DNA of 64,000 nt from Isurus oxyrinchus (lineage: Eukaryota): the NCBI GenBank assembly GCA_026770705.1, contig JANJGN010000021.1, positions 90,458,001 to 90,522,000 of the forward strand, in the 5' to 3' direction. A program made the position numbers and the translations under genes. A model generated the notes under the pieces. That model was not told the DNA's origin, did no database searches, and worked only from the letters and a program-made list of their open reading frames with translations. Each line of letters begins with the position of its first letter. The stretch's first letter is position 1. This document shows positions 33,601 through 64,000 of the stretch, one piece after another.

Positions 33601-33850
33601 ATATCTCGATAACAGAATCGAGGGATGGGTGATCATTAGGCTGCTCAATTTCAAAGATGACTTTCAGTCTTGGACGGAACACATGAAGGTGTGCAAGAAA
33701 AGGCTTACATGAAACTGCAGATTCACATGTAACAAAAGTTTTAAAATAATGTTTCAAGCCTTGCATATTTGCTTTTAATTAGCAACGAGCTTAGAGAACC
33801 TGCAGTTCCCCTTCCTTACTTCAAGGTCACTCAGAGTCGACTTGCCAAAA
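30660..33850 (-). mobile_element. Old Penelope-like element with inverted segment; copy at ~55880-60680
   Basis: ORF 33296-33766 'YC.PT.T.QYVNWD.YSS..YKI.CIGNL...AICS' (PLE RT C-terminus); ORF 31241-31621 'LEAALI...ALQK' (GIY-YIG end); inverted + strand piece at ~30990-31310. Confidence 0.8.
31895..33130. mobile_element. ~1.2-kb insertion inside the Penelope, possibly a solo LTR; copy at ~57230-58490
   Basis: Interrupts the start of the PLE endonuclease. AATAAA near 33080 and a 'cataaca' end-like motif at ~58450; termini not resolved. Confidence 0.4.
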
Positions 33851-37420: not shown

Positions 37421-37429
37421 TTCGTGTCA

Positions 37430-38540
37430 CAGGTTCACACAATCACAGTGCAGAAGAAGCCCTTCGGCCAATCGACACTGCGCCAAAACGTGAGAAAATC
37501 CTGACCAAACTACCATTTCCAATTTAACATCACTTGGCCCATTGCCTTTAATGCTCTGACGCGCCAATTGCTCATCCAGGTACTTTCTAAAGGATGTGAG
37601 GCAACCCGCCTCCACCATGCACTCAGGAAGTGCATTCCAGACCGTCACCACCCTTTGGGTAAGAATTTTTCTCCTCACATCCACGCTAACCCTCCTGCTT
37701 CACACCTTGAGCTAATGCCCCCTTGTGACTGACACTTCAACTAAGGGGGACAGCTGCGCCCCAAGCCCCTCATAATTTTATATACATCGATGAAGTCGCC
37801 ACTCAGTGTTCTCTGCTCCAATGAAAACAACCCAAGTATATCTAACGTCTCTTCATAACTTAAATGTTTAATCCCAGGCAACATCCTGGTGAAGCTCCTC
37901 TGTACCACCTATAGTGCAATGGCATGCTTCCTATAATGTGACGAACTGAATTGTACACAGTTCTCCAGCTGTGGCCTCACTAAAGCTCTTTACAACTCCA
38001 ACATGACCTCAATTCTTTTGTAATCTGTGCCTCGATTGATAAAGGCAAGTGTCCCATATGCCTTTTTCACCACCCCTCTAACATGCCCCTCTGCCTTCAG
38101 AAATGAATGGACACAACGCCAAGATTCCTTTGTTCCTTAAAACTCCCTAGTGTCATGCCATTCATGGAATACTTCCTTGTCAAATTAATCCTTCCAAAGT
38201 GCATCACCTCACATTTTTCAGGGTTAAAATCCATCTGCCTATTATCTGCCTATCTGGCCAATCCTAACTGTATCTTCCTGTAGTGCAAGACTCTCAACCT
38301 CACTGTTAACCGCCCGGCCAATCTTTCTGTAATCCTCAAATTTACTAATCCCGGCCCCCACCTAGTCATCTATATTGTTTATATAAATGGACACCGTCTT
38401 CCATTCGCTCAAGCATCCTTCTGTCATAAATCTCTGCCTCCTACAACTAAGCCAATTTTGAATCCATATTATAAAATGACCCTGTATCACATGTGCACTT
38501 CCCATCTTTATAAGTCTCCCCTGTTGGAGCTTGCCAAATG
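37430..38540 (-). mobile_element. CR1 (HER1-type) LINE 3' end
   Basis: ORF 37427-37684 'DVRRK.LTQRVV.VWNALPE.MVEA..L.SF.K.LD'; 3' UTR 'ggccgaaggg...ctgcactgt'. Confidence 0.88.
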
Positions 38541-41500: not shown

Positions 41501-41905
41501 GGTGGTTGCATTATCGCCTGTTGTTTTTCCAGTATGATTCACTTTCGAAATTTCTGTAACAGTCCTATTCAACACAAGCTTTATCACACCTTTTCGTCAG
41601 AAGAACAGCAATACCTGGCAATTTGGAAACAAAAATAAGCAAAAATAACAAGAATAAGTGGGTATGACAAAATTTTGGCTAAAGGTTAAAGGTACTCTGG
41701 CAGCTCTTATTTTCGTCATTCTGTCACCCGTTCACTGTTTATACACCACTCATATTTTCCAATTTGCTAACACCAAAGATTAATTCTTGATTTTAATTTA
41801 CTTGGTGCTCCAATTCAATAACTTATGAAATGGTTTCCCATTTCGGAATATTGTACATTTACTCAAAATTGACATGAGTTTCGATCTTTTCCTCTCGTTC
41901 TGCAG

Positions 41906-41929
41906 AAGAAAATACGGAAAAAAATGCAG
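41906..41929 (+). CDS. 24-nt micro-exon A
   Basis: ctctcgttctgcag|AAGAAAATACGGAAAAAAATGCAG|gtaatt; intact in all three units (1542, 21248). Confidence 0.6.
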
Positions 41930-44900
41930 GTAATTGGATTTATGAAATAATGGAAACATATTAATTTCCTTTTCTCCTTTGTTTCATTATAAAAAGTTAG
42001 AACGTTAAACTTTCGACTGACCAGATATTCACACATGAAAACTGTATTTACAGTCATTTCTAGATTTCCTTCATTTACACTGTTACGAAAAATGCTTTCG
42101 AAGCAATTATTGATCTTCCCCCACTAAATGAAAGCAAAAATAATTGAGCCAAGTTTGGCATTAGCATTATTTATTCTTCTTTTTTCCTCTCAATTAATTC
42201 ATCAATATTCCCTGTCGCTCGTCATTCTTCGAAGTCAGCGGGATTAAATATGATGAGTCGTAGCAATTTCGAGTAAGCCAAATTTAAGGATACTGGCATG
42301 AAATAAGATGCTGACGGATTGATAGAATGATTTGTTTGGTTGGTTTTATTTGAGGAACAATATTATATATGCCTCCATATTTTTTATATTTTATAGATCT
42401 CCAAATTATCTGAACGTGGTAGTGAGGAATTCATGAGAAACACATAAGTTATAGAGCAGTGCTTGTTCTTTCATTCACTTAGTTCGGGGAAATATAACAT
42501 GAATTAATTGAAGGGGAATTACTTTTAACTCCAGGTAGTCAGTGCCATCAAGCACGTTAACAGTTAAGGGTTAACAGATGAACTTTGCAAACCCTTAGAG
42601 CCTGCAATCACCAGAAAGACGCTGGGAACTAGACTGGAGACAGAGGATGGAAGGAATATAGACTATGTTTCCTGGGAACCAGACTGGAGACAAACATTGA
42701 AAATAATATAAATTAACTGTACACTTCAATAGATAAGGAAAGGCCAGTTTGATTGGGCGAGAAAGATTTATATATGTGTAAGGGAATATATGTTCCTATA
42801 TTTGAACAACATAGGAATCTGAACAATGTTCTTAGACGTGACGGGATTATTTAAATATACCGAATACTTGTAATTTAGCAGATTGTAACGTCAAGCTGCT
42901 TTGAAGTGGTTCTGTCCTTGCAATTACTCGATTAAACGATCATAACCTGTACCTGAGCCTCCTGCGGTTCGTTCATCAAGTATATCCATGACGACTGTTT
43001 CAATTGTCCTTCAGTCTAATTTTGTTTCTCGGAAATCTTCCCTTATCTCAATTACGTACTATCTTGCAAACGTCGGATGTCATCTATAAATGCACCTTTC
43101 TCGCATTCTTCTTAGATGCATGCAGACAAAGCATGGAGGAATAGCGCAACCAGCTTGATACGCATGCCTTTATTATTAGTTGCAGTGTATGCAATCAAAG
43201 AGGGTAAGATGGATATATGTGGTAAGCTGAGATTTTTCTCTTATTTGTCTACGTTCTAACCATCACCAACAATTATGAAAATACATATATGTTGAAAGTG
43301 ACTATGAGGTACATAGTATTTAATGTCAACTCTGAGATACAAGCCTCAACACCATATAGAAACTTTGATTGTTAGTCGAAATGCAGAAATTGCATTTATT
43401 TTAAACTGAATCGAATATACATTTGGTCAATTGTGTTTTTGTTATATTTCAGAGAATATTATCCTGCGGGAACAGCTTGGTAAAGTGATAATTTGAATAA
43501 AGCAATTATGCAACATATGAAGCATTGCTACCCACTTTTGTAATTATTGAAGTCACTGCCTTCTTTAAACATTCGCTTTGTAATAACAGTGATTAAATTG
43601 AAGGATACAAAAAAAAATGACTTTTCTGAAATCTGCCGGAATAGCCCTCGAAATCGACTTGCTTATTAGAAAATGTTGATTAAATTCCACTCGTTTTCAG
43701 AAATTAATATTTACGGTCTTCATACACTGATCATGTATCCATCCTAGTGTGCCAGCAAGCGCAGAAATCCACCTTATTACCAGGCCTTGAATGTTTTGAG
43801 GTTTCCCCAATAAGAAGAATGCAGGGCAAATAAGGAAAATTCTGACGAAACAAGAAATATAATTTATGTTTTTGTTTTGATGCTTCAGTACATTAGCGTG
43901 AGTTGGGAATGTTTAGCATAACAAAAACCATCTGCTTCCATGAAGACGATTACTGCCCTTCGAGGATTTTCCCTAAACAAATGAAACATCTGGGACTTTA
44001 GTTGCCTATTTGCGGTCTAATTATTTATGTTTTTGTTGTCGTGGTAAATGTACACTTTTGCAAAAATCTATGCATCCAATCGCATTGGGTAAAAGAAAAT
44101 GCTGGCATATACCATTCAATCTAAGCACCTGCCATGGTCTAATATCATCGGAAAAGTAGGTGCTAAAAATGACAACTGGTAGAACTTGATATGTGTTGGA
44201 CCAGGTTTTGCTGCTCGACAGCTTAAGGCCAGACTGCCAGTTTAGGGGTAATGTGAGATGCTAGTAAGCTGAATAGCTGTTGGCCCTTTGAATATATGAC
44301 TGAGCAGCGTAACGGCTGTTAAAATTCCCCTTTGGCAAAATTGGCACGTTTTCTTGACAGAACCTGCTGAGATTTTGTTCACAAAACAACCCATACTAAG
44401 AAAACATAAAATCCTATTTTAATTTAGTATAAATTAGAGCCTCTCGAGGAAGCAGTAGGAGTAAAAATGGGCCGTGGCGAAACGGTTTTCGTCGGGATTG
44501 CGATGTTGTCCACCCATTTCACTGCAAACTTCAACCAGCTTTAAGGAATTGGTTTACCACCTGTCTTGGCGCCGGTTTCCCTGTGTCTCAACCTGATTGT
44601 GGTCGAGGTGTGGACCACTGTGTGAACTTTCTGCTAATTCCAGATCATCTTTGTTGGAAGGTGCATCACAATATATCTTATCTTTTCCAGTAAGGCGCGT
44701 GTGTGTGTCTATCTGTGTATGTGTCTGCATGTGGTTCCTGACTGTGCTAAACATGGGGGTAGCGGTGAGCAGAAAATGAACGTTATTTCCCTATTCCCAC
44801 ATGCCCTTATTAAAATAGAGTTGAGAGATGAACGGACTCACGGATACTGGTAGAATTTTGTAAACTGTGTTTAAATATGGCAACGTTAATCTTTATGTTT

Positions 44901-47900
44901 GGTTACATTTCCACTACTGTAACTAACCCGTATCGCAGAAGGAGGAAGGACGTTTGATTTAATTGATAATTACTTTCACAAATTGTTCATTTTCATCCCA
45001 AAGTGTTTCTTACAATCTGTTCCAGTAAGTGAAGCAAAGTGATACAGTTAAAATTTGCACCATGTTATAGACATGAGGATGCAGAGCAGTGTACGCACAG
45101 AAGTATTCCATCAACTCATGAGCATCGCCATTATGCCATTATATAAAGCAGCGAAATTTATAACATAACATTACTTTGTGTTTCAAGTTTTATGTCAGCT
45201 GTAAAGCATGCTTCCGCGAATCAATTAAATGGAAATTATGAAAGTTTGAAGCATTATGTTTGCTAAATTTAACTAATGATATGGCAACAATCTGATTCAC
45301 CTGCAAACATAAATAACTGGATGCTCAATTTGTGCTTTGCTTTGGTATGTTTCACCAGCTGAAAAGACGCAGCAAATCGCAGGTAATCGGCAAAAAGATG
45401 TTTGTGTATCCAAATTAAGAGGCGAAAAACACCCGGCATATTTTCTAAACACCATATATGTTTCCCTGCTCCTTTCTCATGTATCCATGATTTGGTATGC
45501 TGAAGAACAGCAGTTACCCTGTTCATACGAAGTAAGTCGCTTTCCTAGTTTAGGATTGCACGTTTTCCTCTTCAACCCTGAATCAAACTATTTCAAGTAT
45601 TCTATTAAAGGAAGAAACATGGAAAATCTTCCTGAGCCTCATGCATTCTGATGGATTGCGACTTGGAGAAAGCCAGCTTTCCTTCGCCGTTGCCCTGCGA
45701 ACAAAGCTACTTAATCCTGGAAGGGCCATGAACATTGGAAGAGCAAACAATTATTAAACTCAAACAGTACTGACGTTTTAAATATTATATTTGCCTTATC
45801 ATGTTCTTTAAACTGTTATAAAAACTCGAAATAACAAGGACGACGCAGTTTTTCATCATGTGAAACCAAATAATAGTACTTTACGCTGAAAAGTTCTGAT
45901 TTCCAATATTGTTGAGTTGATGTATGATCATTTATTATGCAAAGTACAGCTCAGCTAAAATGCAAGTTATCACTACTCTTTAAATTGGTCAACTCCTTCT
46001 CCTCATTTTTACGTAAATGTTTTTTTTTCATTTAGTGCAACAACAAGTCATGAAATGGCCTTTTAAATTATTAAGAACATAACACTTTAAGAAAACTCCT
46101 TTGTTCTCAGATTTAGAGGAAATACAAGCATCTTCGAGTAAGAATGAGATATTTTCAGATTGTATCTGATATCGCAAGTTACATAGATTATTCAGAACAT
46201 TGATCGTAGCGATTTATGCCAGATACTTACAATTACTCTTCTTTATCTATTTGCGTCACAGCAATCAAAAGAGAACAGCCTTCAAAGTTGAGCCTGTACT
46301 CTGTAGGATTTTAGAAAACGTAATTGTGTCTGGAATTCGCTACCAGAGGAGGTGGTGGAAGCAGGTATGAAAGTGGTGACAAATACACAAATAGGATGGG
46401 AATACAGGGATACGGACCCCGGAATTGCAAAATGTTTTACTTGTCGGGCACTATAATCGGCGCAGGCTTGGAGGGCCGAAGTGCCTGTTCCTGTGCTGTA
46501 CTTTTCTTTGTTCTTTGTTCCTTGTAATCTGGCTTATTTCAGTATAAACTACACAAGCCTCCAGTAACAAAATCTTTGGTTCATAGCTAAAAAAACTTGA
46601 CTTATTCTATGTAATAAATTAAGAATGTCATTTTTTCTCCCGTTTTTATGCATCAAGATGATTCATTACCCGTTTTCTGCATGTTTGGGGCGCACGATCG
46701 AATATTTTTCATGTTACATAATCAGAAAAAAGAAACTTTCAGAAATAGAGTGCAAGAACAGATTGCCTAGTGAGCAAGAAGTAGGCGAAATATAGAAAGC
46801 CTGATAAAACAATATATCAAGCGATACTCCAGTTAACATTTTCAGAAGCGTTGCAATTGAACTTTGCCGAGAACGCGAATAGGGAAATAACCTATAGACC
46901 GCTCGTGAAACGTCTCGTTTATTCCCATGCCAGTGGGCGACTGCTTGCTTAGAGCGCCATCTAAGGCAATGTTTTATTCTCTGCCAGTTAAATGGATTAC
47001 CCGTTTTATGTTGCAAAGGCAATTAATATGTCAAATTGATGTTTCCTGACGGATCAACTGCTGATGCAGAAATGTAAAATTCTAGAATGGAAGACAATCT
47101 AATTCTGAAAAATATTTTTGGCGCATTAAGGTGAAGGGGAAATTCTATGTGAAAAAAAGAATATTGCATTCTTATCAACTTGGCGCATTGCAAAAGTCCA
47201 TTGTGCCAAATGTTTTAAATTATTCCGATCGCTTTGCAGCCAGAACATCTCAAGTAACTGGAGGCATTTTTTTTTGTTTTAAACGCCCATAGTTACGAAG
47301 TATTCAATTTTATATAAACGTGAATAGAAATTACGGAAAAAAGTTGTCCTCATGATACCCAAAAAAATGAACACTCTTCTCTGGATAACGTTTCATAAGG
47401 CTTTCAAAAAGTGAAGCATAATTTTTCTCCCTTTCTATTCCATTCAAGTTGTGGTAAATATCAACATTATATTAACCGATAAGGTTATTGCTTTGCAGCT
47501 GTATAATCATATACTATCATCCATTCCTGGGATTTGAACATCGTTGGCAAGCCCAGCAAATATTGAAAAATGCTTATTCTCTTGCGAAGATTTTGGTGCC
47601 TCACAGTCATGAGTACTGCTGCAATCGAAAGAACCGGATTTAAAGCAACAATAATGGTCATGGTCGCACTTTAAAAATACATTTCGTTTTAACAATGAAA
47701 CCAAAATCATATAAACCTCAGATGAATTAAAAGGGAAATCAAAGTCAAGAGTAGCAATAAATTACAACTTAAATATCAGTTACAACAAAGGTAGATCTTA
47801 AGGACATACTAGGCTGTCCACTCAGCATGTATTACACCGATTTCAACTACAAGTTCCTTCAGAACTCTGACCCTCACTGATAGAACTTAAGGTCCTTTCC

Positions 47901-50900
47901 TACAAATCCTTGGCCATAAATTTTCAGCTGACAGGACCGCACCCTCAAACGTTATTTCACCAGTAAGGTCTTAAAAAAATGATGCATTCCTCTGCAACTT
48001 CTCATCTCTGACCAGGACGTCTCTGAGAAGGTCGTTACCATTTATAGTCGAAGCCTCATTGACAATCCTGACTAATCTTGCGCTATTGGTTCATTTGAAA
48101 TACTGAAATAGTGACAGTAACTTCTTTTCTCTCCTTGACATGCACTCCCATGCCTGGCCTTCCTGTTCATTTTTTGTTATATATATGATGCCACCACCTC
48201 TGCTCTTTCTTCTCGTCAGCTAGGTGTCACGCTATCGAACCCATACTTGAAGAGGAAAGTGTCGAAAATATCCCCCTGCACAGGGAAAACTATCTCGCTA
48301 CCATGGGGTTGCTAACAAAATATTTTTTGATTAAAATGCGCGCCCCTCTATGGCTCAGGTGCAAATCCTGAGGTTCCATCCTCCCGTAACCCTGCACTAC
48401 ATCCGCATTGCTGTCGCTGGGCCGAAGCCCTGGAACTCCTTCGTTAACAGCACTGTGGATGTACCTACACCACATGTACTGCAGCTGTTAAAGAAGTCAG
48501 CTCACCACCACTTTTCAAGGGCAGTAAGGGACAGTCAATAAAAGCTGTCTCAGCCAACATCTCCAACATCCCATGAATGAACGAGAAATAAAATAGCAAT
48601 GGTACAAAAATGTATGCTGTTCTCATTTGGCAAACAGATTAAAAACTTTTCGACCAACACGTTTGGAAGGGTATGAGGAAAGCATTCTTTGATGCAACGT
48701 GTGGTGATGCCTTGGAAGCAGATTCCAACCGCGGTTGCCCCATTTGAGGTCCATACAAGAGCAATTAATGGATGAGGCGGGGAGTGGGCACTGGGGGCTC
48801 GATCAACTTTTGACACCCTTCCGGCCTGCCGAAGAACCGGGCCACTCTGGTATTGCTCCTTGCCTGGCGTCGAACCAAATTTACAGACCACTTCTCTGAC
48901 TTTTATAAAGAATGCAAATTAATTGTTCCCACTTAAAAGCAAAGCCTCTATGTTCTATGGCCATTATTGCCAGCAACACCATAATTCTTCCTGGCGATTG
49001 CATGAGGCTGAACGAGGCTATTCGGAAGTTTAATCTGACATTTGACATCCACTTGAGATTATAAACAGGAATCCTTGGCACTACTAAGGTGATGTTTTTC
49101 CAGCCCTGTTATCTCACGTGTCTTACCTTCTCCTTGGTTTATCTGATAATGAAACACTCATCTCTGCTAATGTCAACTCTTTAATTAGTTAATCCACCGC
49201 ACTTCACCTAGGGTCTATCTTCTCGAAGCTTGAAGGCATCAAAAGCCCGGCTTCCCTTTCTTGGTCACGCATCACCCCTGTGGTCCTTCGGCATATTGGA
49301 TCCCGTTTATACTGGACCACAAGTTAAAAATTCTAATTATTGTTTTCAAATCCCACAGTAGCCTCATTGCTCCCTAGTTGTTTAAACTGCTCAAGGTCTC
49401 ATTTTTTTCATCTTCTTTGATCTTAGCAGAGCTGGCCACTTGAACACCCGTCAGTATTAGCCCTGCCCCATTGCCGGCCTTGTCTTCAGTACCAAGACTT
49501 TGGCTTCTCTTCTTGAATTCTCGAGATTTTTACCTTTTCTCAGCTCTGTATCTGTCTCCTAAATAGCTCACTTTGTTAAATAAAGCTTTTGATTCTATGC
49601 ATTAATAGATCCTCCAATGACCTATTGTCACATCTGCTTTGATAATGTTCCCATGGAGAATCTTGTGACATTTTACTTACTCAAATGCACTGCCCAAACA
49701 AAAACTACTGTTAATATCGTTGCTATGATATGCTTATTCCAGTGTACATTTCTTTATTTTATACCAAGTGGGGTGACAGTTCTTCATTTCTGCCAGATCG
49801 ACTCTCACCACTAAAAGTTCTGGTATACCAATGTAGCTGGTATTTCAGGTTTTAATTCCTAATCAGGATGCATGAAAATAAGAAAGCTAATGTTTTAAAA
49901 ATGTATATTTATTTTGCTTACCTCTATCTCTCTTAATCTCATTTTTCTTAAATTTTCTTTATTACTATTGCATCTAACTAATTCCTAATTGATTAGAAAA
50001 AAGAAAGGTCTTTGTATTGAATTAATTACGGCAACTTGCACGATGTGGTTTATGGTATGTTTTGTTCAGATAGGGATCATCAATTCAGTTGGCAAATAGA
50101 TTAAAAATGACTTTCACGGATAATTAACATCCCAGATATCCTGTTAAGTACCAGGGCGTTTTGGCACTCAAGTCAACATCACAATAACCAATTATTTGTT
50201 CATTTTGACATTGGGCGCTTTCTGTGTTCAAAATTGAAGTCTGTGCTTTCTTCATTTCAAGAGTAGCTATTATTTAGATGCATATGTTTCGCTGGTTAGC
50301 GCTTTGAGAGCCAGGTGACCGTAAGTCGTTCGTTTTGTTCCGTAATGCAGTCAAAATTTTGTCAACAGTGCAGAGTAGTCTTCAGCCTTCAACAGGTGAA
50401 CATTGTTGTTCATTCCACCAACAACTAGAATTGTGCATAGTTGGAACGCCAAAGGAAAATGATGTATAATGTTGCATTTGAAAATTCATACACAATTCAA
50501 GAAAAACAACATTACTTTTGAACATTATCATTTTAAGTATAGGGCTCTACTAAAATTTAATCCAGCTACGTTTATTGAAGTGCGGTTAATAACATCAAGT
50601 AGCATAACGGTGTATCCAATTTGCTCACAAAATCTTTCCTAATATCAAGTGAGAGATACTCACCAGGTAATCATTGCTTCTGCAATGGGAGAGAAGTACC
50701 GCTTAAACTCTGAAAAACATCTAATCTGATCTTGTGCAACTTCTACCATCGAGTAGTCCACGTGCCCCGGAGCAGGAAGATGGAATCATAGTGTACAATT
50801 TCAGCAAAATAAAATGACACATTACATTAGCACTACATCATATTGCCATTACAGCATTTGCTATGGTCAGTCAGCAGGCCATCACTAGAACCGGGATATA

Positions 50901-53900
50901 ATTGTGAGTGGTGATACGTTCGGCAGAGTTACCTTACTAATCAGGACAATAGCAGTTTGATAATATCGGTTGTGCCACAGCTAGAGGTGGAACATGCCTC
51001 TGGTTCAGCTGGGCGAATAAAACTTGCTCAGCATCAAGCCACCGATAAAACGGAAGTTCTTTTGAACGAGCACAGACCCCTGTAACATTTTCCATTTATT
51101 CCAGCCGTGGATGCAGCGTTCTCGTTAATATGTGCGTGTGTGTGTCTGGCTAGTGTGGGTGGTGGGTAGTGGTGGTCCTTCAAATGGCGATAAACGAATT
51201 TGGCTATCCTGAGAACGACTGGACAGGCTGCCAAAGTCTTCTTGACATTCTCCTCAGTCTCTGGAAAAGGCTGACATGCCGGCGGCTGCTGGCGTTTTCT
51301 ATTATTGGCCACAGGACGTAAAGCATTAATTTGTCAGCCAGGATAATCTGTTTATGTAGATTGAATGGCTCTTCCTGAGGCATAAGTGAAGATGCTGCCA
51401 TCCAATTAAATCTGATGCGCTAATCCTGGTGTTTCTTTTCTAGTTTCATGGGATGTGAGAAACACTGGCAATGGAACATTTATTTCACAACCGCAATCAC
51501 TCTTGAGACACTGGTTGGAGCCGCATTCTCAAATGGTTGAAGTCCAGCTGCTGCACATACTACCACAGGGACTTTAGAACAGGATTTCCAGGAAATTGAT
51601 CCAGCATCAGGGAGAAAAGGTGATATGGCTCCAATTCAGGGTATCGAGGAGCTGGAAGAGAACTTGCAAGTGCTGCTCTTCTTAAGGGTCTGCTGCGGTT
51701 GTTGGTAAAGAACCTTGCTTTAGGAGGCCCTGTTGGGAGAGCCCTGGTGAGTTATGGAATTCAAATCGTATTTCACAAGCACTGCTGCCACTGAACGTTT
51801 GTGGTGGGTGGTTGTTTAACTTGATGGGTAGTTTGCCGATCATGCAGATTATTTTCTGTTGTTATTACTGAATACTGCGGAGCTTCATGAGACTTTTTGA
51901 AGCTGCATTCATTCATAAATTCATTCACTCAGGAGAGCATTCCTGCACGCTCCGGATATGTGCCTTGTTGTTGGCAGAAAGACATTTGGAGGGCAGGATG
52001 TGACTTAATCTCCTCAGAAGCTCCAGTCTCTGACCACCTACTATCTCTGCTGAATTTATATGAATGGTATTGTTCGGGTTCTGGCCAATTGCATAACACC
52101 AGTATGTTGGTGGTGAGGGTTAAGTGATAGCGATGCTTTCGGATGTCAAAGGAATGTGTTTACATTTCCTCTTGCAACCGACGTTATTTGACTGTCAATA
52201 CTGTGGCTTATATGTTATTTTCCAGCTTTCAGCCCAAGCTGGAATGCTGTCCAGGTGTTGTTGCACATGGACACGGATTGCCTAAATATCTGATGAGATG
52301 CGAATGGTATTGAACATTTTCCGATATTCGGCGAATATCCCTGAGAATAATTCATCTGCACATTCTCATGTTGTTGAGTAGTTGGTCATTTAACGGACTG
52401 TCAAACGGCAACCTGAATTACACCCGGGCTGCAGCTGAAAATCTGTTTCAAAAGTCTCCCTAACTAATTTTAGTATACAAATCTTTATTTTAGTTTCTCT
52501 ATTTAAGCGTAAATTGTCACATTGTGCGCTTGGAGAAAAATGATAAGTAGCTGATCAATGCATGCACTGTCAGTGCCTCAGGGTACTGTCCTCGGCCTTC
52601 CTTCCATCATAATGCCAGGAGTGGGGATGTTGGCTGATGATTGCACAATATTCAGCACCTTTGGCGACTCTTCAGATACTGAAGCAGTTCATGTCGAAAT
52701 GCAGCAAGACCTACACAATATCCAGCCTTGGCCTGACAAGTAGCAAGTATTATTTGTGTCACACAAGTGTCAGACAATGACCTTCTCTACCAAAATACCA
52801 TCTAACCAAAGCCCCTTGAAGTTCAATGGCATTACTATTACTGTATACACCAATATCAACATCCTGGGAGTAACCGTTGACCAGAAGCTGAACTGCACTA
52901 GCCAAATAAATACAATGGTTACAAGAGCATGTCTGGGGCTAAGATTCCTGCGGCGTGCAACTCGTCTCCTGCCTCGCCAAAACCTGTCTCCCATCTACAA
53001 GGCACTAATCAGGACTGAGATGAAATACTTCTCAGTTGCCTTGATGAGTGCAGCTCCAAAAGCACCCACGAATGTTGACACTATCCAGGGCAAAGCAGCC
53101 CACTAGATTGGTACCACACCAGGAAACATTCACAGCCACCCATACCGGCACACAGTAGCAGCAGCGTTTATCATGCAGAAGATGCATTGCAAGAAGAATC
53201 CAAGGCTCCTTGGATAGCACTTTCAAAATTCATGACCACGACCATCCAGAAGAACAAGGGCAGCATATAGATAGGAACACCCCCACCTAAAATTCTACCC
53301 CCAGTTAATCAACATCCTGACTTGTAAACATATCGCCGGTCCTTCACTGTCGCTGGCTCAATATCCAGGAACTTCTTTCTCACAGTGCTGGTGGTGTACT
53401 TGCACCACAGCGGTTCAAGAAGGCAGCTCATGACCAACTCCTCAGGGAAAACTATGGATTGGCAACAAATGCTGGACGAGCTAGCGTAGCCCACGTCCTG
53501 TGACTGAATTCTTTTAAAGAATACTATATTCGTTTATAAATCCAGGCACTCATCTGCCACGTACCAACTTCTCACAGGAAGTAACCTAAAAATATCAGCT
53601 ATCAGTACTTTGTTTTAAGCTTAACCTTTCCTGTTCGTCCGAAATTCGTTGAGACAAGCAGGAAATATAATGGATGCAGTTCCACTCTCTGCTGTTGTAT
53701 AATATCTGTTTTTGCTCTCTTTCAGACGATGGAAATCTCCAGGCCAAATTTAGTAAAGTATAACTCTGCTAGTTCTTTCTTTCTGCATTCACAACACAAT
53801 TAACTTTAGTTGTGTAAAGCTCTAATTGTCCACCCTGAGACAATACCAATAGAAATGAAACCCATGATAAATTGTCAGTTAAGTGCACTGAGAGATGCTA

Positions 53901-56900
53901 TTCGACTTACTTCGCCGGTGTCAACGCTTTGAAAAAATTACACAACTCATCTCAAACCCGCCCTCCATTCCTTTGAAATATTTCCCCGAAACCCTGTCCC
54001 CAAGACAATCAAATGGTTTCGGAATATTTGGCGAAGTTGCACTGAAGAGTTATTGAATATTCTTCCATCACAAGCGCAATCATATCATTATGTAATGTTC
54101 ATTTGGTTTTGAGTTAATGCACGTTATCGAGTAGAGTGCCTAAATAGTGAAAGGGTGAAAATTAAGAACTTTCGAACAGAAGTAAATTGCGGATTCTGTG
54201 AACTAACTTAAAGTGCAATGGTATCCACCTATTCTGTCAGCAATCATTAGACGAAAATGCTTTCATTAGAGACGTTATAATTCAGGGAACGGAATTCAAT
54301 AAAGGTGCACAACAGTCCAATAGAACACTGAGGCATGGATATTCGTCCATAGGGACATCAAAAAAGTCATGAATTTTCATCGACTGCCTGCTCTACGCAG
54401 CGCCTGATCTGTAACTTCATTGTATTCACGTTATAAATTCATCAGTATTTTGTTTTATTTTTTCACTGTCAGAGGATAATATTTTCATCTGTTTATTTCA
54501 TTTCCAGCGAAATTGAATTTACTCTCCCTGGCGTTCGTTGATTGTTCTCAATGCCTGTGCGTAGGAGTGAATAATTCAGAGGGCAGTCTTAAAATTTGGT
54601 GGGGCACAGAATAATGATATGAACTCTCTGAAGTGCTTTATATGACGTCGGCATTTATTTTGCATTGCATCTCCACACAAGTCAAGTTACATTCGCTTAT
54701 TGTCCCTAGTTTACAATTAGCAACCAAAATCTAATAATAATGGCTCATAAAATCAAGAATCAAATTTACGTATTATCACGTTAAATTAGTTATTCGAAAT
54801 TCAAAGTTGACATTTGTTACTTACCAAGGTTTTTGTTTATTTTACTTCAGTGGAAACCGTTATGGAATTAAAAGGTAACTAGCATTCGAAGCAGCACAAT
54901 ACACCCGTGATCTCGAGCTACTAATCAATTCCGATCATATATTTTTAATATTCCTTTGAACTCCAAAATGAAACAGCAAACTATCAACAAAAGTAAGATA
55001 TGCAGTGCCATGTAACCAGCAGTGAAGTGGTATCACCAACTTTCCTCCATTGGAGAAGTTAAATCATTCCATGGAATTAAAAATCATCGATGGTTCAGGG
55101 CAAACATTCTTGCCCTGGATTTGGCAATGCTTTTCAAATAAATATTGATTCTACATTTAATTATGGTCCTGCTATTTTAGGTCCCGTTTTCGTCTTAAAC
55201 TGGAGATTAATAAATGGGCTACATCAACATGAAAATTTAGAAGAAGCTTCATCAGTTCTACATTGTGCTATTGACCATGAAATATTTCTGAGAGAACAGA
55301 GGATAAATCTCCTAATGCCAACTAGGTTTGTACATGGAAGCAATCCAAGTGCTTCAAAGGTGCAGAATCAGAAAAAAAAGTATGGCTAATCCAGTGCACA
55401 AAAGAAAGTTTAAGTGAACTGTGTATATATGATATAGAATTCCATCGACATTTTAAGCAGACAAACAGACTCATCTGCCAAATGTGTCAATGTTGGTATC
55501 TATGTTTCTCAAGAGCAACCTTCCATCAACTTTAATCTTATCGTATGAACAACTGATTTCACTTTCTCCCTTGACTACGTATAGAGCCTGCCTCATATAA
55601 ATCAATGTGATTCTTCTCTGATTTATCCAACGGACAACACAAGCATGATTATAGATCTTTAGGGACTTCAAGCTGAAACAGTGATTATGAAAAACATTAT
55701 GTTAAAGCAAAAAATACTGACCAAATATTTCCCAGTACTTTAAAGTAATCCTTGATCTGTTGATTTTTTTAAACAATCTAAATTAAATGAGATGGATAAC
55801 TTCAATATGACAGCCTATCCCTCTATTTACAGAACAGCAAAGACGTAATGCAAAATTAGGTAGGAAAACATTTACAGTTTCCTCTAGAGCACATGTTGAA
55901 GATTGACGAAAAGGAGATATGTTGCTCAATCTCGTCACATTCACTCATCAATGCAAGAGCAAAAAAGCAAAATTTTAAACGATCACAGCAATTTATAATC
56001 GTGGGAAAATGATGTTGTTGGGTAGATAAGTCGACGCTGATAATCCACGACATTGCCATCCTGAATATAATAGGAATATATAGGCTCTGCAAGCTCGCTG
56101 GTAATTAAAAAAAAACAATATTGACTAAATTTTTGAGTTTTGCAAGCGTGGGTTGGCTGTGTACAAATTCTAATCTGCCTATAATGTACAACGAAATTAA
56201 CATGTCGTTTGATACGTTCAGACATGCTTTACATCGATTGTCGTATAGAATCAAACAGCATATTTCCTCAGTTGTTCCTGATAGAAAGAACAGAGTGCTT
56301 TGTGACTCAGCATGCGCTTGCAAAAGGCAAAACAAAATGTCAACTGATAGATGTGATAAAGTAATTGTGCAGCCCGTGCTGAATAATTCTAGGTGTGCTA
56401 ATGACTAAACTAACAACCAATTTAATGAAACAAGCCATTCTTATAATGTGGCTCATTTATGCTTGCTAGAAATGGCAAGCATTCATAAGATTGAGCTGCC
56501 CGTACTGAATAATCCTACATGTGCTAGTAACTAAACTGACAACCAATTTAACCTAACATGCTGTTCTGATAATGTGGCTCATTTACATTTGCTAGAAGTG
56601 ACAAGCATTCATATGAAGGCAGCTGACCTCTGTAAACAGCAGACCTATCATTGCCTGGGAACAAAGTAGATGGGTATTGCTGACAAAATGGACATGCTGT
56701 TGAAGCTTTCTATCTTGCACTCATCAGGATGGATGCAAAAATGCCAAACTGAAAAGGGGGCTGCCATTGACCCAGGTTGAGGGAAAAAGTGCTGATAGGT
56801 TGTCAAGTAGAAATTGGCAGGTCGAGCCGTGTACGTGGAAAATGCACCACAGAACTATTGTCCTCCATGTTTTTCTTTAATTCAAAAGAATTGAAATGCA

Positions 56901-59900
56901 TGGACACTTTCCATTTTCTGCAGAGTGCTGGTACCATTATGAATAAATGCAGCTTCTAGCAAGCCTAACTGAGCCACATTGTGAGGTTAACCGTCATTGT
57001 TAAATTGGTTGTTAGTGTAATAGTTAGCAAACTTGCAATTGTTCAGCAGGCTCTTTCCCATCGCAGAATCACATTCAATGTTAAAAATCATAATCTGACC
57101 ATGGCAACTTGCACTGGCTGTGTATACTCAGTGCTCTTACTGTTCCACTCATGTGAGTCTGCGTGCCGCCAATCATTGGGATGTAAGACAAAAATGCATA
57201 GCATCAGACCAGCACGGAAATCCATATGTCATGTGATATGAAACCCAAGCTTGTCTAGCTGGCGAGCATGGAGGACAAGAACTTTAACCTCTGACAGACC
57301 TTGCAACGTTCGATCGTGAGAGACCAGCACATGCACAGAGCCGCATTTTTACATTATACAATGCCCAGTTGGCTTTTGTCTTAGGGTGCAGAAAGTCCAG
57401 GTTAGGTGACCGAGAGTGGAGCACCACCGCAGGCAAGTGTCCCAGGCAGGGGGCAAGGAGAGTGAACAATGAAAGGTCCCAAAGTAGAGGTGAAAATCCA
57501 AAAGTTTCAAAAGGGGCGAGAGGACAGTGATATGAAAATGTCCCAGTTCAGTTAGAAAGAGAACAGCAGAGAAACAGGCTCCAAAAACGAACATGACAAT
57601 GGGGAGCAGTGAAGAAGACAGCCAGAGGTTTCTGACTGTCTGCTACAGGCCGTTGGGCAAAACTACACTGATGGATCAATCTTTTTCTGCTCCATGTGGC
57701 CAAAGACCTGAAATTTTGCTGGTGAGTTGGCTGTTGAGTTCATGGTTGGAACTCCAAGGAAAAAGGATCTCTAAACTCGGGATTGAAATACTGGGCGCCC
57801 GTTGATGCCACCTGAATCTGGTAGTTGAAGAAAACACAGAAAAAAGATCGAAAACCCAAGAAGACTGCTAAAAGATCGTGAATCCGTGCTGGAGACCATT
57901 CGGCCAATAGTGCACCTTTGAAGCAATAGTGCTCTGCTCACGATAGCCGAAGATGTGAAGTTATGCTTGAGAGTTAGTGCTTGAATGAATGCTTGGTAGT
58001 CTAGGGGGAATAAATATCGGAGGATGCGTTTGAAACCTTGTGAGGTGGGCAATTATGGCTACCGTCCGAGCTGAAGCCATATTTAGGGCGGAATCAAAGG
58101 CGTTATGTTTGAATGTGTGTACTGGGCTCCTTCGTGAGAGAGGCAGAGTTTCAACAAGATTTTTTGACTCACAGTATTACTTACAATCTGGGAGGCTTTT
58201 TGAGGAATCCATGGACGTTAACTTCGGGTCATCATCATTTCTTGTGAAATGTGGTGCGGTCGAATACAGTTGGCTTGTTAACTCATATGTAGTTCAGATT
58301 TACTTTGGATGCATGAGCATAGGATAGATTTTGCATCTTGTTTTATGTTTTTGACATTGTACAGTAAAGTTGATAATTGTTCAAAGCATATGGAATAATT
58401 GCCTATAATCTAGAACTTTGGCTACTTTAGAACAAAATGTTATTGGTCCATAACAGGATCTTACCAGCAGGTTAAGAGCCTGATCTACAATCAGTGCATA
58501 AGCTATTCATTTGTATGGCAGTCAGAAAATCTTTTTAAATTGACAGCAACTTCCTGACAGTGAGACTTTCAATTGAGTGCTACTGCACAGTAGCAGCTTG
58601 ACATCGCTAGCTTCACGTGCAACTCACTTTTACAAAATACTTCACTCTTACAGGGTAACTGGAGATAGATTGGGCACTTGTCAGGGTTGAGGTGGCGTCC
58701 TTTTGGACGTTTGTCAAGGAGTGCAACTGATTCAATTCAATGATCGCAATATCTATTGTCCTGTTGGATAGCTTTGATGTGCCCGATTTCAGTGTCTGTC
58801 TTGTATAATGGGCAAATGGCTCCAAACCCATTTTCGAGATTGCCAATGTGGACAAACTTAAAATCGGTGGACAAAAACAGAATTACCTGGAAAAACTCAG
58901 TAGGTCTGGCAGCATCGGCGGAGGAGAAAAGAGTTGACGTTTCGAGTCCTCATGACCCTTCGACAGAACTTGATTTCGAGTCCAGGAAAGAGTTGAAATA
59001 TAAGCTGGTTTAAGGTGTGGGGGGGGGGGGGGGGGGAAGGAGAGAGAGAGAGAGACAGAGGTGCTTGTGTAGACAAACAAGCAGTGATAGAAGCAGATCA
59101 TCAAAAGATGTCAGTAACAATGGTACCAAAGAACACATAGGTGTTAAAGTTAAAGTTGGTGATATTATCTAAACGAATGTGCTAATTAAGAATGGATGGT
59201 AGGGCACTCAAGGTACAGCTCTAGTGGGGGTGGGGGGAGCATAAAGGATTTTAAAATATTTAAAAATAATGGAAATAGGTGGGAAAAGAAAAATCTATAA
59301 AATTTATAGGGAAAAAAAAGGGGGAAAAAAGGGGGAAACAGAAAGGGGGTGGGGATGGGGGAGGGAGCTCACGACCTAAAGTTATTGAATTCAATATTCA
59401 GACCGGAAGGCTGTAAGGTGCCTAGTCGGAAGATGAGGTGTTGTTCCTCCAGTTTGCGTTGGGCTTCACTGGAACAATGCAGTAAGCCAAGGACAGACAT
59501 GTGGGCAAGAGAGCAGGGTGGAGTGTTAAAATGGCAAGCCACAGGGAGGTTTGGGTCATTCTTGCGGACAGACCGCAGGTGTTCTGCAAAGCGGTCGCCC
59601 AGTTTACGTTTGGTCTCTCCAATGTAGAGGAGACCACATTGGGAGCAACGAATGCAGTAGACTAAGTTGGGTGAAATGCAAGTGAAATGCTGCTTCACTT
59701 GAAAGGAATGTTTGGGCCCTTGGACGGTGAGGAGAGAGGAAGTGAAGGGGCAGGTAAAGGTCTGAATATTGAATTCAATAACTTTAGGTCGTGAGCTCCC
59801 TCCCCCATCCCCACCCCCTTTCTGTTTCCCCCTTTTTTCCCCCTTTTTTTTCCCTATAAATTTTATAGATTTTTCTTTTCCCACCTATTTCCATTATTTT

Positions 59901-60955
59901 TAAATATTTTAAAATCCTTTATGCTCCCCCCACCCCCACTAGAGCTGTACCTTGAGTGCCCTACCATCCATTCTTAATTAGCACATTCGTTTAGATAATA
60001 TCACCAACTTTAACTTTAACACCTATGTGTTCTTTGGTACCATTGTTACTGACATCTTTTGATGATCTGCTTCTATCACTGCTTGTTTGTCTACACAAGC
60101 ACCTCTGTCTCTCTCTCTCTCTCCTTCCCCCCCCCCCCCCCCCCCCCACACCTTAAACCAGCTTATATTTCAACTCTTTCCTGGACTCGAAATCAAGTTC
60201 TGTCGAAGGGTCATGAGGACTCGAAACGTCAACTCTTTTCTCCTCCGCCGATGCTGCCAGACCTACTGAGTTTTTCCAGGTAATTCTGTTTTTGTTTTAG
60301 ATTTCCAGCATCCGCAGTTTTCTTTGTTTTTAAAATCGGTGGAGCTGTAATAACCCCAATGAATCTCTTGGTCAGTGAATGTAGGCTTGCATTAGAGAGA
60401 AGTATGGAATCTTTCAGAGGATATATCGATTACAGAGTCGAGGGACAGGAGCTCTTTAGGCTGCTCAATTTTAAAGAAGAGTTTCAGTCTTGGACGGAAC
60501 ACATGAAGATGTGCAAGGAAAGGCTTATATGTAGATGCAGACTGAAACATAGCAAAAGTATAAAAAGAATGTTTTCAAGTTTTGCACATTTGTTTTTTAT
60601 TAGCTGTGAGCTTAGAGAGCCGACAGCTCCACTTCCTTACTTCACAACTTTTCGGTCAATCAGAGTCGACTTGCAAACAAACAGCACCACCTTCACCTCT
60701 ATAAAGATTGATAATTAATTGTTACCAACATGTATGTGTAGTTATTACACTTATCTTGTTAAAAAGTGAAATACGGTTCTTTATGCCCTGCCCATGTTCT
60801 CTGCAAAGACACAGATTCATTTCAGCAACGTCCTTAAGTATAATACATCTTCATCTTTTAAACAAATGCGAACGATATTCATGCTCTTTTTTGTGTAATT
60901 CGGTATTGATTTTATTCTCTATCTCCAGAAAGCAAGCTTGAAGCAAAGATGGACG
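41906..60955 (+). CDS. Putative spliced micro-exon chain (unit 3): hydrophobic segment plus coiled-coil-like peptide, partial gene model
   Basis: Exons 41906-41929, 43126-43203, 43453-43479, 45359-45382, 46111-46137, 53726-53752, 54851-54874 and 60929-60955 are all AG/GT bounded and multiples of 3. Spliced in phase 1: xENTEKNA-DKAWRNSATSLIRMPLLLVAVYAIKE-ENIILREQL-AEKTQQIA-DLEEIQASS-NDGNLQAKF-METVMELK-ESKLEAKMD, with no stops. Confidence 0.55.
43126..43203 (+). CDS. 78-nt hydrophobic exon (88 nt from the upstream AG, start 43116); signal-peptide or TM-like
   Basis: ttcttcttag|ATGCATGCAG|ACAAAGC...AAAGAGG|gtaaga; both AGs and the donor are conserved in all three units. Confidence 0.5.
43453..43479 (+). 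CDS. 27-nt micro-exon B (ENIILREQL)
   Basis: ttatatttcag|AGAATATTATCCTGCGGGAACAGCTTG|gtaaag. Confidence 0.6.
44438..44689 (+). other. 252-nt exon-like, GC-richer block of uncertain frame
   Basis: aattag|AGCC...TTCCA|gtaagg. Only the phase-2 Cys-rich frame is open in unit 3; the copies at 3999-4249 and ~23761-24010 have stops or indels. Confidence 0.3.
45359..45382 (+). CDS. 24-nt micro-exon C (AEKTQQIA)
   Basis: tgtttcaccag|CTGAAAAGACGCAGCAAATCGCAG|gtaatc; intact in all three units. Confidence 0.6.
46111..46137 (+). CDS. 27-nt micro-exon D (DLEEIQASS)
   Basis: ctttgttctcag|ATTTAGAGGAAATACAAGCATCTTCGA|gtaaga. Confidence 0.55.
46325..46523 (+). mobile_element. Short CR1 3'-end insertion, unit 3 only
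   Basis: 'gggccgaagtgcctgttcctgtgctgta' with a (TTCTTTG)n tail; TSD GTAAT at 46320-46324 and 46524-46528; empty site at ~25655. Confidence 0.85.
51440..52330 (-). mobile_element. LINE 3' region, minus strand
   Basis: Reverse complement of the family at 52560-53520. Confidence 0.7.
53726..53752 (+). CDS. 27-nt micro-exon F (xDGNLQAKF)
   Basis: tttgctctctttcag|ACGATGGAAATCTCCAGGCCAAATTTA|gtaaag; AG/GT kept in all three units, donor weak. Confidence 0.5.
54851..54874 (+). CDS. 24-nt micro-exon G (xETVMELK)
   Basis: ttttacttcag|TGGAAACCGTTATGGAATTAAAAG|gtaact. Confidence 0.55.
56373..56613 (+). repeat. ~125-bp diverged tandem duplication inside the old Penelope
   Basis: 'gcccgt.ctgaataat...aatgtggctcattta...caagcattcata' occurs twice; once in unit 2. 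Confidence 0.8.
56703..56730 (-). ncRNA. Decayed hammerhead motif of the old Penelope family
   Basis: Minus strand reads CCTGATGAGTGCAAGATAGAAAGCTT; partial copies at ~14500, ~30715 and ~31370. Confidence 0.45.
58872..60329 (-). mobile_element. Young 5'-truncated Penelope-like element with inverted pLTR arms and GIY-YIG endonuclease fragment
   Basis: ORF 59369-59884 'NLVYCIRCSQCGLLYIGETKRKLGDRFAEH...VACHFN...EQHLI...GLN'; arms at 58871-59404 and 59759-60295; TSD TTAAAATCGGTGGA at 58858-58871 and 60330-60343. Confidence 0.95.
60196..60234 (+). ncRNA. Minimal type-I hammerhead-ribozyme motif with variant core; mirror copy at 58932-58970 (-)
   Basis: Stem I AGTT/AACT; core CTGTCGA; stem II GGGTC-ATGAG-GACTC; GAAA; palindromic ACGT stem III; GTC triplet at 60228-60230. 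Confidence 0.65.
60929..60955 (+). CDS. 27-nt micro-exon H (ESKLEAKMD)
   Basis: ttctctatctccag|AAAGCAAGCTTGAAGCAAAGATGGACG|gtgagg. Confidence 0.55.
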
Positions 60956-63900
60956 GTGAGGGCATCATGTATTTTTATCTATGTTCCATGTTTTTTGAAT
61001 TATTTGCAAACATTTCATTTTTATAGGACAAAAATGAACTGCTGATCGGATACCCTCGAATTATGCCCCCGCCAGAATACAGCGTGCTTATAGAATAGTT
61101 GAAATGCATGGTTGCAGATCAGCAGTTGGCTCCGCATTGATCGGTTTATTGTTTACTGATATTGCTTGAAAATGAAAACAACATTAGCTCCCTTTCAGAA
61201 TAAAACCAGGAAATGCTGGAAAAATTCAGCAGGTTTAACAGCATCTGTGTAGCGCAAGACAGATTTACTGTTTCGAGTACGAATGGCACTTCTTCTGACT
61301 CTCTCTTCATCCGGATTCGAAACATTATCTGTGTGTTTCTCTCCATAGATGCTCTCAGACCTGCTGAGTTTTTCTATTATTTTCTGGCTTTGTTTTAGAT
61401 TTCCAGCATCTGCAGAATATTGATTTCATCCTGCTGCACTCTCCCTTTCGCTGTAAAGGTTGAAACACACCAGCATTTCTTGACTTCTAGTTAGATCCGC
61501 AAAATATCTCAATTGATACGGAAACAGTGAATGATTTTGAAATACAGTTAGCGTTTTAATGTCGGCAGCACAGCAACCAATTTGCTCAGAGCCATTTGCC
61601 AGAAATAGCAATTTAAAAATAACCTGATCATCTGTTGTGGTCAGCATAAATTTTTGGCCAGATCACCAGTAGTGAATTGCCAAATATATATTTGAAAAAA
61701 GTTCCAGCGGAGAGTTATGCCTACCTAGGAAGTGAGATTGCACATCGTGTTAATGCCCCATGCAAAATATGTTTTTATCCCATATGTTCCCATCAAAAGT
61801 CGTTGCAAATCTGTATTTTCCACTTCAGCTGTTTCTTGTGTGAGTTAACTTAGAAATGATGCAGTACACTAAAGAGAAACGTTGACACACAAGGAAAACA
61901 AAAATATATATAGAAGGGGCAATTTTAATTTTGGGCTTTAGTCTGAAATGTGAAAAAGGGATTATGGTTCAGCTGCCGCTTACAAATCTCTGCTCGCCGT
62001 TATTTCCAGTGATGATCACTGAAACTATTGTCTCAACTAAAGGGACTGATTCCTTCTCTTCCATTCTTTATTTACAAGATATTCAAGATCCCCTTATAGT
62101 CTGAAAGAACTCTTAGGTTTCTGGCAGAAATGCGAAATTTAGCTACTACCAACTAAACATATTTTATGCTGTGAGAATGCAATCCTCACATAGAGCCATC
62201 AACTCTAACCTTCCTGGTCGCGCGCTTTCCATGTATTTTGCAGTTTAATATTTTCTACTATGACTATGTCAACCTCTGTACGAAATCCTGATAGAATCAG
62301 TGTTAAGAGCTATTAGGAAAGCACACCACTAAATCATCCTAGGAGCATCGTAATGTAAATGCGCATGCGCCTTGATAATATAATATCGACACAAATGAGT
62401 GTCATAACATGAGTAATATTTGTGCTGGGATTGGGACTAAAAGGGAATGCTAACCGATTATTTCTCAGCAAACTCCGCGATTACTTCTCTCAAACTAACA
62501 GTAATAACAGTATAACTTTCAATCGCATGAGCGCGGGTATCATGAAGTTGCGTTTGTAAGTCAGAGATTCAATTCAGGAAGCACTGAAGTCCAGTTCTCC
62601 GTGCTCCACGTCCGGCACATCTGGTGACCATGGAATTCTCCAGAATTTCGACTTTTCCCAAATCACTTTTGCAAAGACACTTGTGCAATCAGCTAAGTGC
62701 GTTTTCTGCAAAAATGTGGTTATGGTGTTGGAAAGAGATTATAATCGGCCCTATATGAAGAGTGAGCAATTGATTGCTTAGTAAGTTTTCCATTATGTCC
62801 CAAAAACTGGAAGAGTAGGTCCGCTTTTACATTCACCCGTGTGCAAGACCCATTTTCAATCTACTGTAAATATAAAAATGCGATTTTGTTTTGCTTTCTT
62901 CATTGGCATTTCATACGGTAGCTACAGTATGATAATTGTTTGGCTGCTTCGGAAACTTCTGATATCACTACAAATCCATGCTGTGACTGTCCACCAAAAA
63001 GGTTTCAATTGGTTGCAGTATGATTGCAGAAAGATAGGGCTGGTACTTTTCTAGAATGATCATTGGATGTCTCAATTAGGCCTACGTTAATGTTTGCAAG
63101 CTTCTTCAATGACCAAACAAAGGGATTAATTTATGTCCACCTGTACTGCAACACGGGCATTGTGATTCCATGTCCACTGCATGTTTAGTGAATAAGCTGC
63201 AGGAAAATAAGTTGTTAGAGCAACTTATCAGGCACCGTGCAAATCAGTATGTTTCTGTTCTCTGCTGGTCTGATACTTCCGAGTATGCAGCAACTATAGA
63301 CCCCACTGCATGCTACGATTCTCCAAACCAAATGCTGCATCGAATGTCTTCTAAGATTTCGCGCTTTTGGCTGTTAAAGAATTGAACAATGCAGCGACCA
63401 CCGTGGAAGTGTTTCGAAGTGGATAAGAGTTTTGGGTAGTGAGTCCTCTTCACCTGTTGTATTATGGTAAGTTTGAATATCTAACATTTCATTGAATTTT
63501 AGTGAATACATGTCTGTAGGAGTGAGAGTGTGAATGGGTGAATGGTTGACTGGGTGCATGAGGGAGTGGGTAACGTGCTGATCAATGTAGGCAGTTAATT
63601 TGGTGAGGAAGGTAAATGGTAATCATGGTTCTGGTGGATGAGCTGGTTAGATTCATGAGGTGGTTGAGTGGTTAGCGTTAGTGTGTAGATGGTTTGAAGA
63701 AGGGGAATGTTTTGGGCAGGTGGGTGAATGGGTTTGGTGGGTGGCTAAGTCGGATGGGCGTTGTAGTTGTTTTGATGTGTGATGTGGTAGTTGTGTGTGG
63801 TGCGTGGCTGGTGAGGGGAATGTGCTTGAGGTGGCTGGTAGGTAGTTGTTGGATCAGGAGTGTAGTTGAGCACCTGTGTAGATGGGTGAGAGATCAGGTT

Positions 63901-64000
63901 AGTAACTGCGTGCCATGGATAACTTGGTGAAGTGGGTACGTGAGTAAGCGGTCTGGTTGCCCTTTTGTAGTTGGATTGATTAAGGGTGAAAAATGGTATG

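Follow-up and report, generated by a model that had tools for sequence, protein, structure and literature searches.

According to the sections of the reports cited here, the chicken BG genes form an MHC-linked tandem family (MHC, major histocompatibility complex), in which one IgV domain and a transmembrane (TM) segment are followed by 13–36 tail exons of 21 (sometimes 24) nucleotides (nt); the tail is alternatively spliced and forms a long coiled coil, its exon number differs between paralogs, and B30.2 is absent (PMC4046983, PMC5938342, PMC8813856). The BG tail or zipper protein regulates actin-myosin (PMC4046983). Butyrophilins have an IgV-IgC-TM arrangement with a few heptads only (PMC4046983) and lie on the MHC chromosome in several sharks, in a report whose sections considered here do not mention a shark family combining micro-exons with B30.2 (PMC12841164). 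This study analyzed a stretch of 64,000 nt (hereafter, the window) from the 5.0-Gb genome of the shark Isurus oxyrinchus (contig C21:90,458,001-90,522,000), in which a first-pass annotation had proposed a hidden array of micro-exons. We consider it probable that the window covers a block of nine exons, present three times, in the interior of one gene, here called gene C. Its product is likely to be a soluble coiled-coil rod of great length, specified by about 80 or more exons of 18–36 nt in a single phase, and the gene belongs to a tandem family whose intact members have B30.2 ends.

The three tandem units of ~20 kb noticed in the first-pass annotation were confirmed, with a pairwise identity of 80% over 11,807 well-aligned columns. 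The units and their micro-exons are as follows (gene D is a paralog of gene C on the same contig).

1..17436: tandem unit 1, starting ~3.5 kb upstream of the window
17437..37803: tandem unit 2
37804..64000: tandem unit 3
41906..41929, plus strand: unit 3 micro-exon A, 24 nt, phase 1, AG..GT ends with a strong acceptor
43186..43203, plus strand: unit 3 micro-exon B, 18 nt (not 78), with a homolog in gene D; the 60 nt upstream are intron
43453..43479, plus strand: unit 3 micro-exon C, 27 nt
45359..45382, plus strand: unit 3 micro-exon D, 24 nt
46111..46137, plus strand: unit 3 micro-exon E, 27 nt
53726..53752, plus strand: unit 3 micro-exon F, 27 nt, donor weak
54851..54874, plus strand: unit 3 micro-exon G, 24 nt
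55833..55859, plus strand: unit 3 micro-exon G2, 27 nt, overlooked at first
60929..60955, plus strand: unit 3 micro-exon H, 27 nt
1542..16183, plus strand: unit 1 copy of the nine exons, both splice sites kept in 8/9; exon starts at 1542, 2848, 3097, 5433, 6147/6153, 12234, 13380, 14388, and 16160
21248..34112, plus strand: unit 2 copy, both splice sites kept only in A, B, D, and F (4/9); exon starts at 21248, 22539, 22808, 24699, 25446, 28426, 29603, 30606, and 34091

In unit 3, the 24- and 27-nt segments were found with AG..GT ends at the positions first proposed, apart from the addition of exon G2. The spliced chain of nine exons (225 nt) contains no stop in phase 1 and three stops in each of phases 0 and 2, which agrees with the claim that only phase 1 is open. 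Intact segments had been described for all three units; this holds for all nine exons of unit 3 and for eight in unit 1, where exon E has a GG acceptor followed by an in-frame AG 6 nt further on, and it fails in unit 2, where exon C has an AA acceptor, exons E and G have TT and GG donors, the donor of G2 is lost, and that of H is deleted. The supposed 78-nt exon also had to be revised. Its paralog in gene D is 18 nt long, with an identical donor octamer and an equally short next intron, indicating that exon B is 43186–43203. Consequently, the stretch taken for a hydrophobic exon is an intronic pyrimidine tract and provides no TM segment. The earlier observation is thereby partly confirmed, and its interpretation, as discussed below, is partly supported. 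Strict matches to 24/27-nt segments numbered four on the plus strand and one on the minus strand of the window, while block shuffles (3 x 150) gave means of 0.06–0.15 and a maximum of 2, so that the observed number is above chance; all splice sites were scored with an approximate vertebrate weight matrix.

The array is not limited to 41906–60955, the bounds first assigned to it, and extends over ~C21:89.65-91.35 Mb. An untrained scan of 1.46 Mb yielded, on the plus and minus strands respectively, 66 and 9 segments of 36 nt, 54 and 8 of 27 nt, and 20 and 5 of 24 nt; all other lengths gave 1–14 segments on either strand (for 21 nt, 9 on the plus and 8 on the minus strand). Over 1.73 Mb, AG..GT segments of 24, 27, or 36 nt numbered 166 on the plus strand versus 25 on the minus strand, with stops in phases 0, 1, and 2 in 106, 6, and 79 of the former and in 6, 11, and 5 of the latter. 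An equal density on the minus strand or in shuffled sequence, named in the first-pass annotation as part of what would speak against its proposal, was not found. A trained catalogue, which omits weak exons such as exon D of unit 3, contained 362 exons on the plus strand and 12 on the minus strand. When the catalogue was trained on the minus strand as a control, 61–75 matches were obtained at threshold 8, where the plus strand gives 333–335, indicating that self-training inflates the count without creating it. The lengths 27-36 or 36-27 occur in 140 of 361 neighbouring exon pairs, and 63 nt correspond to three heptads. It is very likely that these tiny segments are real exons.

Proteins of other cartilaginous fishes gave further evidence. 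The catshark model XP_038671249.1, retrieved with the B30.2 domain of gene D, has 945 amino acids comprising a coiled coil of ~770 residues and a B30.2 domain, and its hydrophobicity shows the strongest period at 3.5 residues. Colinear with this protein are 65 micro-exons of gene D that lie ahead of the intact B30.2 (370/521 identical residues across 63 of the exons). The same holds for 43 exons in gene C, where the chain has a score of 762, compared with 163–228 in five shuffles. Within the window, exons B-C-D match this protein from residue 118 and exons F-G from residue 173, and none of 500 shuffles reached either score. A profile search of 1.84 billion representatives revealed more members in ray, skate, sharks, and chimaera. 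The family RefSeq models, which are orthologous or paralogous coiled-coil and B30.2 sequences, include XP_038671249.1 and XP_038672306-10 (catshark), XP_069775418-28 and XP_069775384-90 (ray), XP_042192744.1 (chimaera), and XP_078422387.1 (basking shark). These models are automatic, partial, and mislabelled (A33-like, golgin-like, trichohyalin-like, nuclear-pore anchor-like), and the triplicated block as such is covered by none of them. Regarding orthology to gene C or gene D, a ray model gave chain scores of 619 versus 703, and the chimaera protein P0086 chained weakly onto module B of the same array and onto gene D (207 and 197 vs 88–140 shuffled). A search of the ESM Atlas with the start-exon peptide gave no match.

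RefSeq isoforms in ray, bamboo shark, catshark, and chimaera show differences of 6, 8, 9, 11, and 12 residues, and some also differ by longer or terminal pieces. Two of these differences sit at places homologous to 36-nt exons at the C21 locus. RefSeq isoforms of such kind rest on RNA-seq.

The catalogued exons fall into successive modules along the locus: gene A (17 exons and B30.2), module B (149), gene C (80), gene S (4), and gene D (112 and B30.2). The B30.2 exon is intact, with a phase-1 acceptor, in gene A (C21:89.722 Mb) and in gene D (91.348 Mb), and it is broken in genes C and S, the broken exons at window +369,979 and +432,884 having global scores of 160 and 183 vs ~30 shuffled. The features of gene C are listed below in contig or window coordinates.

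~C21:90,415,272-90,828,500, plus strand: gene C, ~410 kb with ~80 catalogued micro-exons, enclosing the whole window
window coordinate -42,728: 63-nt exon upstream
-41,517 to -41,385: ATG exon, open, both splice sites present
window +369,979: broken B30.2 exon

Paralogous ATG exons of ~39 codons precede genes C, S, and D at -41,502, +399,918 (frameshifted), and +462,233; their peptides are acidic, and those of C and D contain a tyrosine motif of the DEYINI type. Just upstream of the ATG exon, C and D have in common the 63-nt exon, which is probably untranslated because all three frames are closed in C. The first-pass annotation had offered two options, a tandem gene family or a repeated exon block, and both apply: gene C is one of at least four tandem paralogs, and the three units are an internal triplication of the nine-exon block within it, not three genes. 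Among the protein models, catshark XP_038672308.1 and ray XP_069775385.1 match gene A (C21:89.65-89.72 Mb), a short paralog with its 17 micro-exons and intact B30.2. In module B, at C21 ~89.88-89.94 Mb (window -577 to -518 kb), ~35 near-identical 36-nt exons follow one another at a spacing of ~1.5 kb, with some 18-nt exons interspersed, and in many of them a cysteine recurs at the same place; this run is a recent tandem expansion.

In the strongest alternative, the architecture is the same but gene C is now in decay as a pseudogene; its exons would be genuine remnants, and the triplication would be neutral. The B30.2 exon of gene C is disrupted by numerous stops, by gaps, and by an insertion, although the acceptor is intact; five of nine exons are lost in unit 2; and the neighbouring gene S has both its start exon frameshifted and its B30.2 broken. 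On the other side, the ATG exon of gene C is still open between its two splice sites, ~80 exons remain open with AG..GT ends across 410 kb, and unit 3 has retained every exon. The comparison of genes C and D by blastn points the same way, since alignments occur only as islands centred on exons, and the micro-exons (70% identical) are found while the B30.2 remnant (58%) is missed. The weak coding signal among the units, in turn, is what decay would produce. We regard the pseudogene explanation as rather unlikely and, by a modest balance, favour a gene C that is still functional.

Several observations weigh against our interpretation and should be taken together here. The C-D exon pairs gave a nonsynonymous divergence (dN) of 0.29 and a synonymous divergence (dS) of 1.14, but the 35 pairs were selected by similarity, which pushes dN down, and the ratio gives no assignment of constraint to the C branch. 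Among the window units, the exons are 84–89% identical vs a background of 80%, with no excess at third positions, and dN/dS between units 1 and 3 is ~0.8 on 38 synonymous sites; recent protein-level constraint is thus not shown among the units. Splice-site retention is more telling within the window than the substitution signal. With a neutral retention of the AG/GT pair of ~0.55 per exon and branch, unit 1 keeps 8/9, 9/9 in unit 3 has p ~0.004, and 4/9 in unit 2 fits neutrality; unit 3, however, first served to define the exons, so that 9/9 is inflated. For six exons whose definition came from gene D, p becomes ~0.03. The symmetry of all exons means that one can be lost at no cost to the frame. 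The trained catalogue is likewise inflated by self-training, XP_038671249.1 reaches no further than the final 250 kb of gene D, and the tyrosine-bearing start exon is in none of the RefSeq models. The relatives P0086 and P0171, which represent the branch found on contig C34 (see below), start with hydrophobic, signal- or anchor-like N-termini, so that the term "soluble" may not apply family-wide. Finally, the expression and protein of gene C are predicted. No RNA set was listed for 41800–46200, and four presumed-RNA contig sets compared with 41700–61600 matched nothing but repeats, none of the listed matches having a joint at an exon boundary; as exons of 18–27 nt are beyond contig resolution, this result counts neither for nor against our interpretation.

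A second explanation is that modules B, C, S, and D form one giant transcript of >340 exons (149+80+4+112 catalogued), encoding ~3,400 residues and reaching the last B30.2, from which the dead internal B30.2 exons are skipped. The modules share strand and phase 1, no intact B30.2 lies between 89.72 and 91.35 Mb, and neither a start exon nor a B30.2 remnant of module B was found at the locus, all of which such a transcript would accommodate. The separate ATG exons of C, S, and D are difficult to reconcile with it, as are the conserved 63-nt exon in C and D, closed in C, and the exon order, which is repeated in each module as in whole-gene duplicates. This explanation appears improbable.

Third, the array might be the cytoplasmic tail of a membrane-bound butyrophilin or BG gene whose Ig (immunoglobulin) and TM exons lie further upstream. 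Such a gene would fit the MHC linkage of the locus, with MHC class I from 93.6 Mb and BTN-type IgC exons from 95.6 Mb on contig C21, which also carries many SPRY genes, and it would fit the succession of heptad micro-exons and B30.2 and the hydrophobic N-termini of P0086 and P0171. Pfam scans for Ig, RING, and B30.2, which took in nearly all plus-strand open reading frames (ORFs) of the flanks, gave nothing relevant in 148 of 169 listed ORFs in the 100 kb upstream of the window or in 150 of ~213 ORFs in the 100 kb downstream; nothing relevant was detected in 97 of 126 ORFs at the 5' ends of the genes or in 58/58 around S and D. Across these 453 scanned flank ORFs, there was no Ig, RING, or B-box, and the ORFs within the window itself were judged by eye. 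By exon pattern, no Ig- or TM-type phase-1 exon was found at the locus, nor any hydrophobic phase-1 exon between the start exon and the first micro-exon of C or D, and hydrophobic stretches in raw frames had no tie to splice sites. A motif scan of plus-strand ORFs over 1.69 Mb revealed no RING or B-box, and a V-set search, which listed no match on C21 among the 150 of 3319 candidates scored, carries no weight here. In the family proteins, Ig, RING, B-box, and TRIM_CC were absent from 10/10 according to Pfam. The 16 family B30.2 domains were also separated from 23 sampled TRIM/BTN-type domains with an SH-like approximate likelihood ratio test (SH-aLRT) value of 100, in a quick, midpoint-rooted tree whose outgroup consisted of single-domain matches chosen from 150. 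We consider a membrane-bound tail very unlikely. As for chance AG..GT segments chosen by eye within a segmental duplication, to which the modest conservation among the three units and some weak splice sites might point, the strand bias, the stop-free phase, and the comparison with orthologs refute this explanation, which has a negligible probability.

Concerning the function of a soluble rod, the following scheme is inferred throughout. The 3.5-residue period and the pairing of 27- and 36-nt exons, which together specify 21 residues or three heptads, suggest that a long coiled coil is encoded, presumably in a cytosolic protein. As all exons are in phase 1 and multiples of three, duplication, loss, or skipping would occur without frameshift. 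Rod length would thus be tuned in evolution, as seen in the triplication, the decay of unit 2, and the upstream tandem 36-nt runs, and probably also by splicing, judging from the isoforms of the relatives. In the intact paralogs, the rod would dimerize and keep a ligand-binding B30.2 head far from the acidic, tyrosine-bearing N-terminus, possibly in the role of a spacer or scaffold that links the two, comparable with a butyrophilin tail released from the membrane. YxN is a Grb2-type SH2 site. The product of gene C would be a rod that lacks the head and stops after 18 codons of the dead B30.2 exon, and it may act like the chicken BG tail or partner the headed paralogs. On a wider scale, we tentatively propose an undescribed family of cartilaginous fishes, at least as old as the shark-chimaera split, that carries a distinct B30.2 head on an adjustable rod of up to 100–150 phase-1 micro-exons per gene with no Ig, TM, or RING, and in which, at the MHC-linked C21 locus, headless tandem copies are in use or a transcript of >340 exons is made.

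Additional features were observed around these genes. In unit 3, a conserved AG-led segment after exon H (61028–61120, with copies at 16255 and 34182) contains a stop within a few codons and is a possible alternative terminal exon; as the terminal exon of the gene it was rejected because micro-exons go on downstream. The intron ahead of exon H holds a 537-bp inverted duplication (58871–59404 / 59759–60295, 99.4% identical) flanking a fragment that we take to be Penelope/LINE-like, and at 56364–56616 there is a direct tandem repeat of 127 bp (83% identical) with a partial inverted copy near 56937–57048. On contig C34, five B30.2 exons of the same clade lie ~1 Mb apart at 2.71, 3.47, 4.82, 6.40, and 7.50 Mb. 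Micro-exons were found upstream of them on the sense strand only, in 7/7 sampled 10-kb stretches, while control stretches gave single weak matches in 5/17; a search for longer homologs with a C34 B30.2 query found none. Judged from its skate and chimaera relatives, the C34 branch may be secreted or anchored. A single open frame of 845 codons at C21:66.133 Mb, lying 27 Mb away from the main cluster, contains two matches to MHC class I domains and is apparently an intron-poor or retroposed class I-like gene, and at C21:112.48-112.55 Mb about a dozen near-identical SPRY exons recur at a spacing of 5.6 kb.

Compared with described systems, the shark locus resembles chicken BG as an MHC-linked tandem family that encodes a coiled coil in many tiny exons of variable number, probably with alternative splicing of these exons, and gene C also shares with BG the absence of a functional B30.2. 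It differs in having no detected Ig or TM, in exons mainly of 27 and 36 nt rather than 21, in modules of 80–150 exons over 400–600 kb, and in intact paralogs with B30.2. The succession of heptad exons and a phase-1 B30.2 exon at the end of the gene (seen in A and D; broken in C), together with the place near the MHC, recalls butyrophilins, but no Ig or TM exon was found at the locus, true BTN-type IgC exons lie elsewhere on the contig, and the family B30.2 forms a separate branch. The butyrophilin/BG tail design invoked in the first-pass annotation therefore holds for the coiled coil and for the B30.2 ends of the paralogs, and not for Ig, TM, or exon length (27, 36, 24, and 18 nt instead of 21). 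With TRIM-B30.2 proteins, the family has in common a soluble coiled coil and B30.2, many SPRY genes around the locus, and the RefSeq names "A33-like" or "TRIM39-like" of its relatives; the differences are the lack of RING, B-box, and TRIM_CC and a coil made from micro-exons.

Schistosome micro-exon genes (MEG) combine a signal peptide with symmetric micro-exons to yield short secreted variants. The comparison with them, also made at first, is appropriate for the symmetric micro-exons and remains an analogy, as genes C, S, and D begin with exons whose peptides are acidic and not signal-like. Guinea-pig enterophilins consist of a long leucine-zipper rod and B30.2 with no RING. These proteins, for which the literature search gave no match, and other chordate proteins with a long coil and SPRY, seen in the ESM Atlas as clusters of 1277–1802 amino acids, have a similar rod and B30.2 without RING. 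In one such protein, P0108, the B30.2 groups with TRIM/BTN domains outside the family clade, which suggests convergence of the design. No paper describing the shark family was found in a search that included few subscription journals, and supplements could list such genes.

The shark locus is thus an undescribed variant of the heptad-exon/B30.2 design, with members known as mislabelled automatic models; the present analysis contributes the triplication within a gene, the start exons, and a paralog without its head. With ~350 micro-exons in 1.7 Mb, it lends itself naturally to studies of how micro-exons are spliced over introns of many kb, and it exemplifies a gene class which annotation shortens or mislabels. 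Found in the oldest jawed vertebrates, next to their MHC, a rod of micro-exons that bears B30.2 and lacks both Ig and RING would represent a third design beside butyrophilins and BG and bears on the origin of heptad-exon tails and "orphan" B30.2 proteins.

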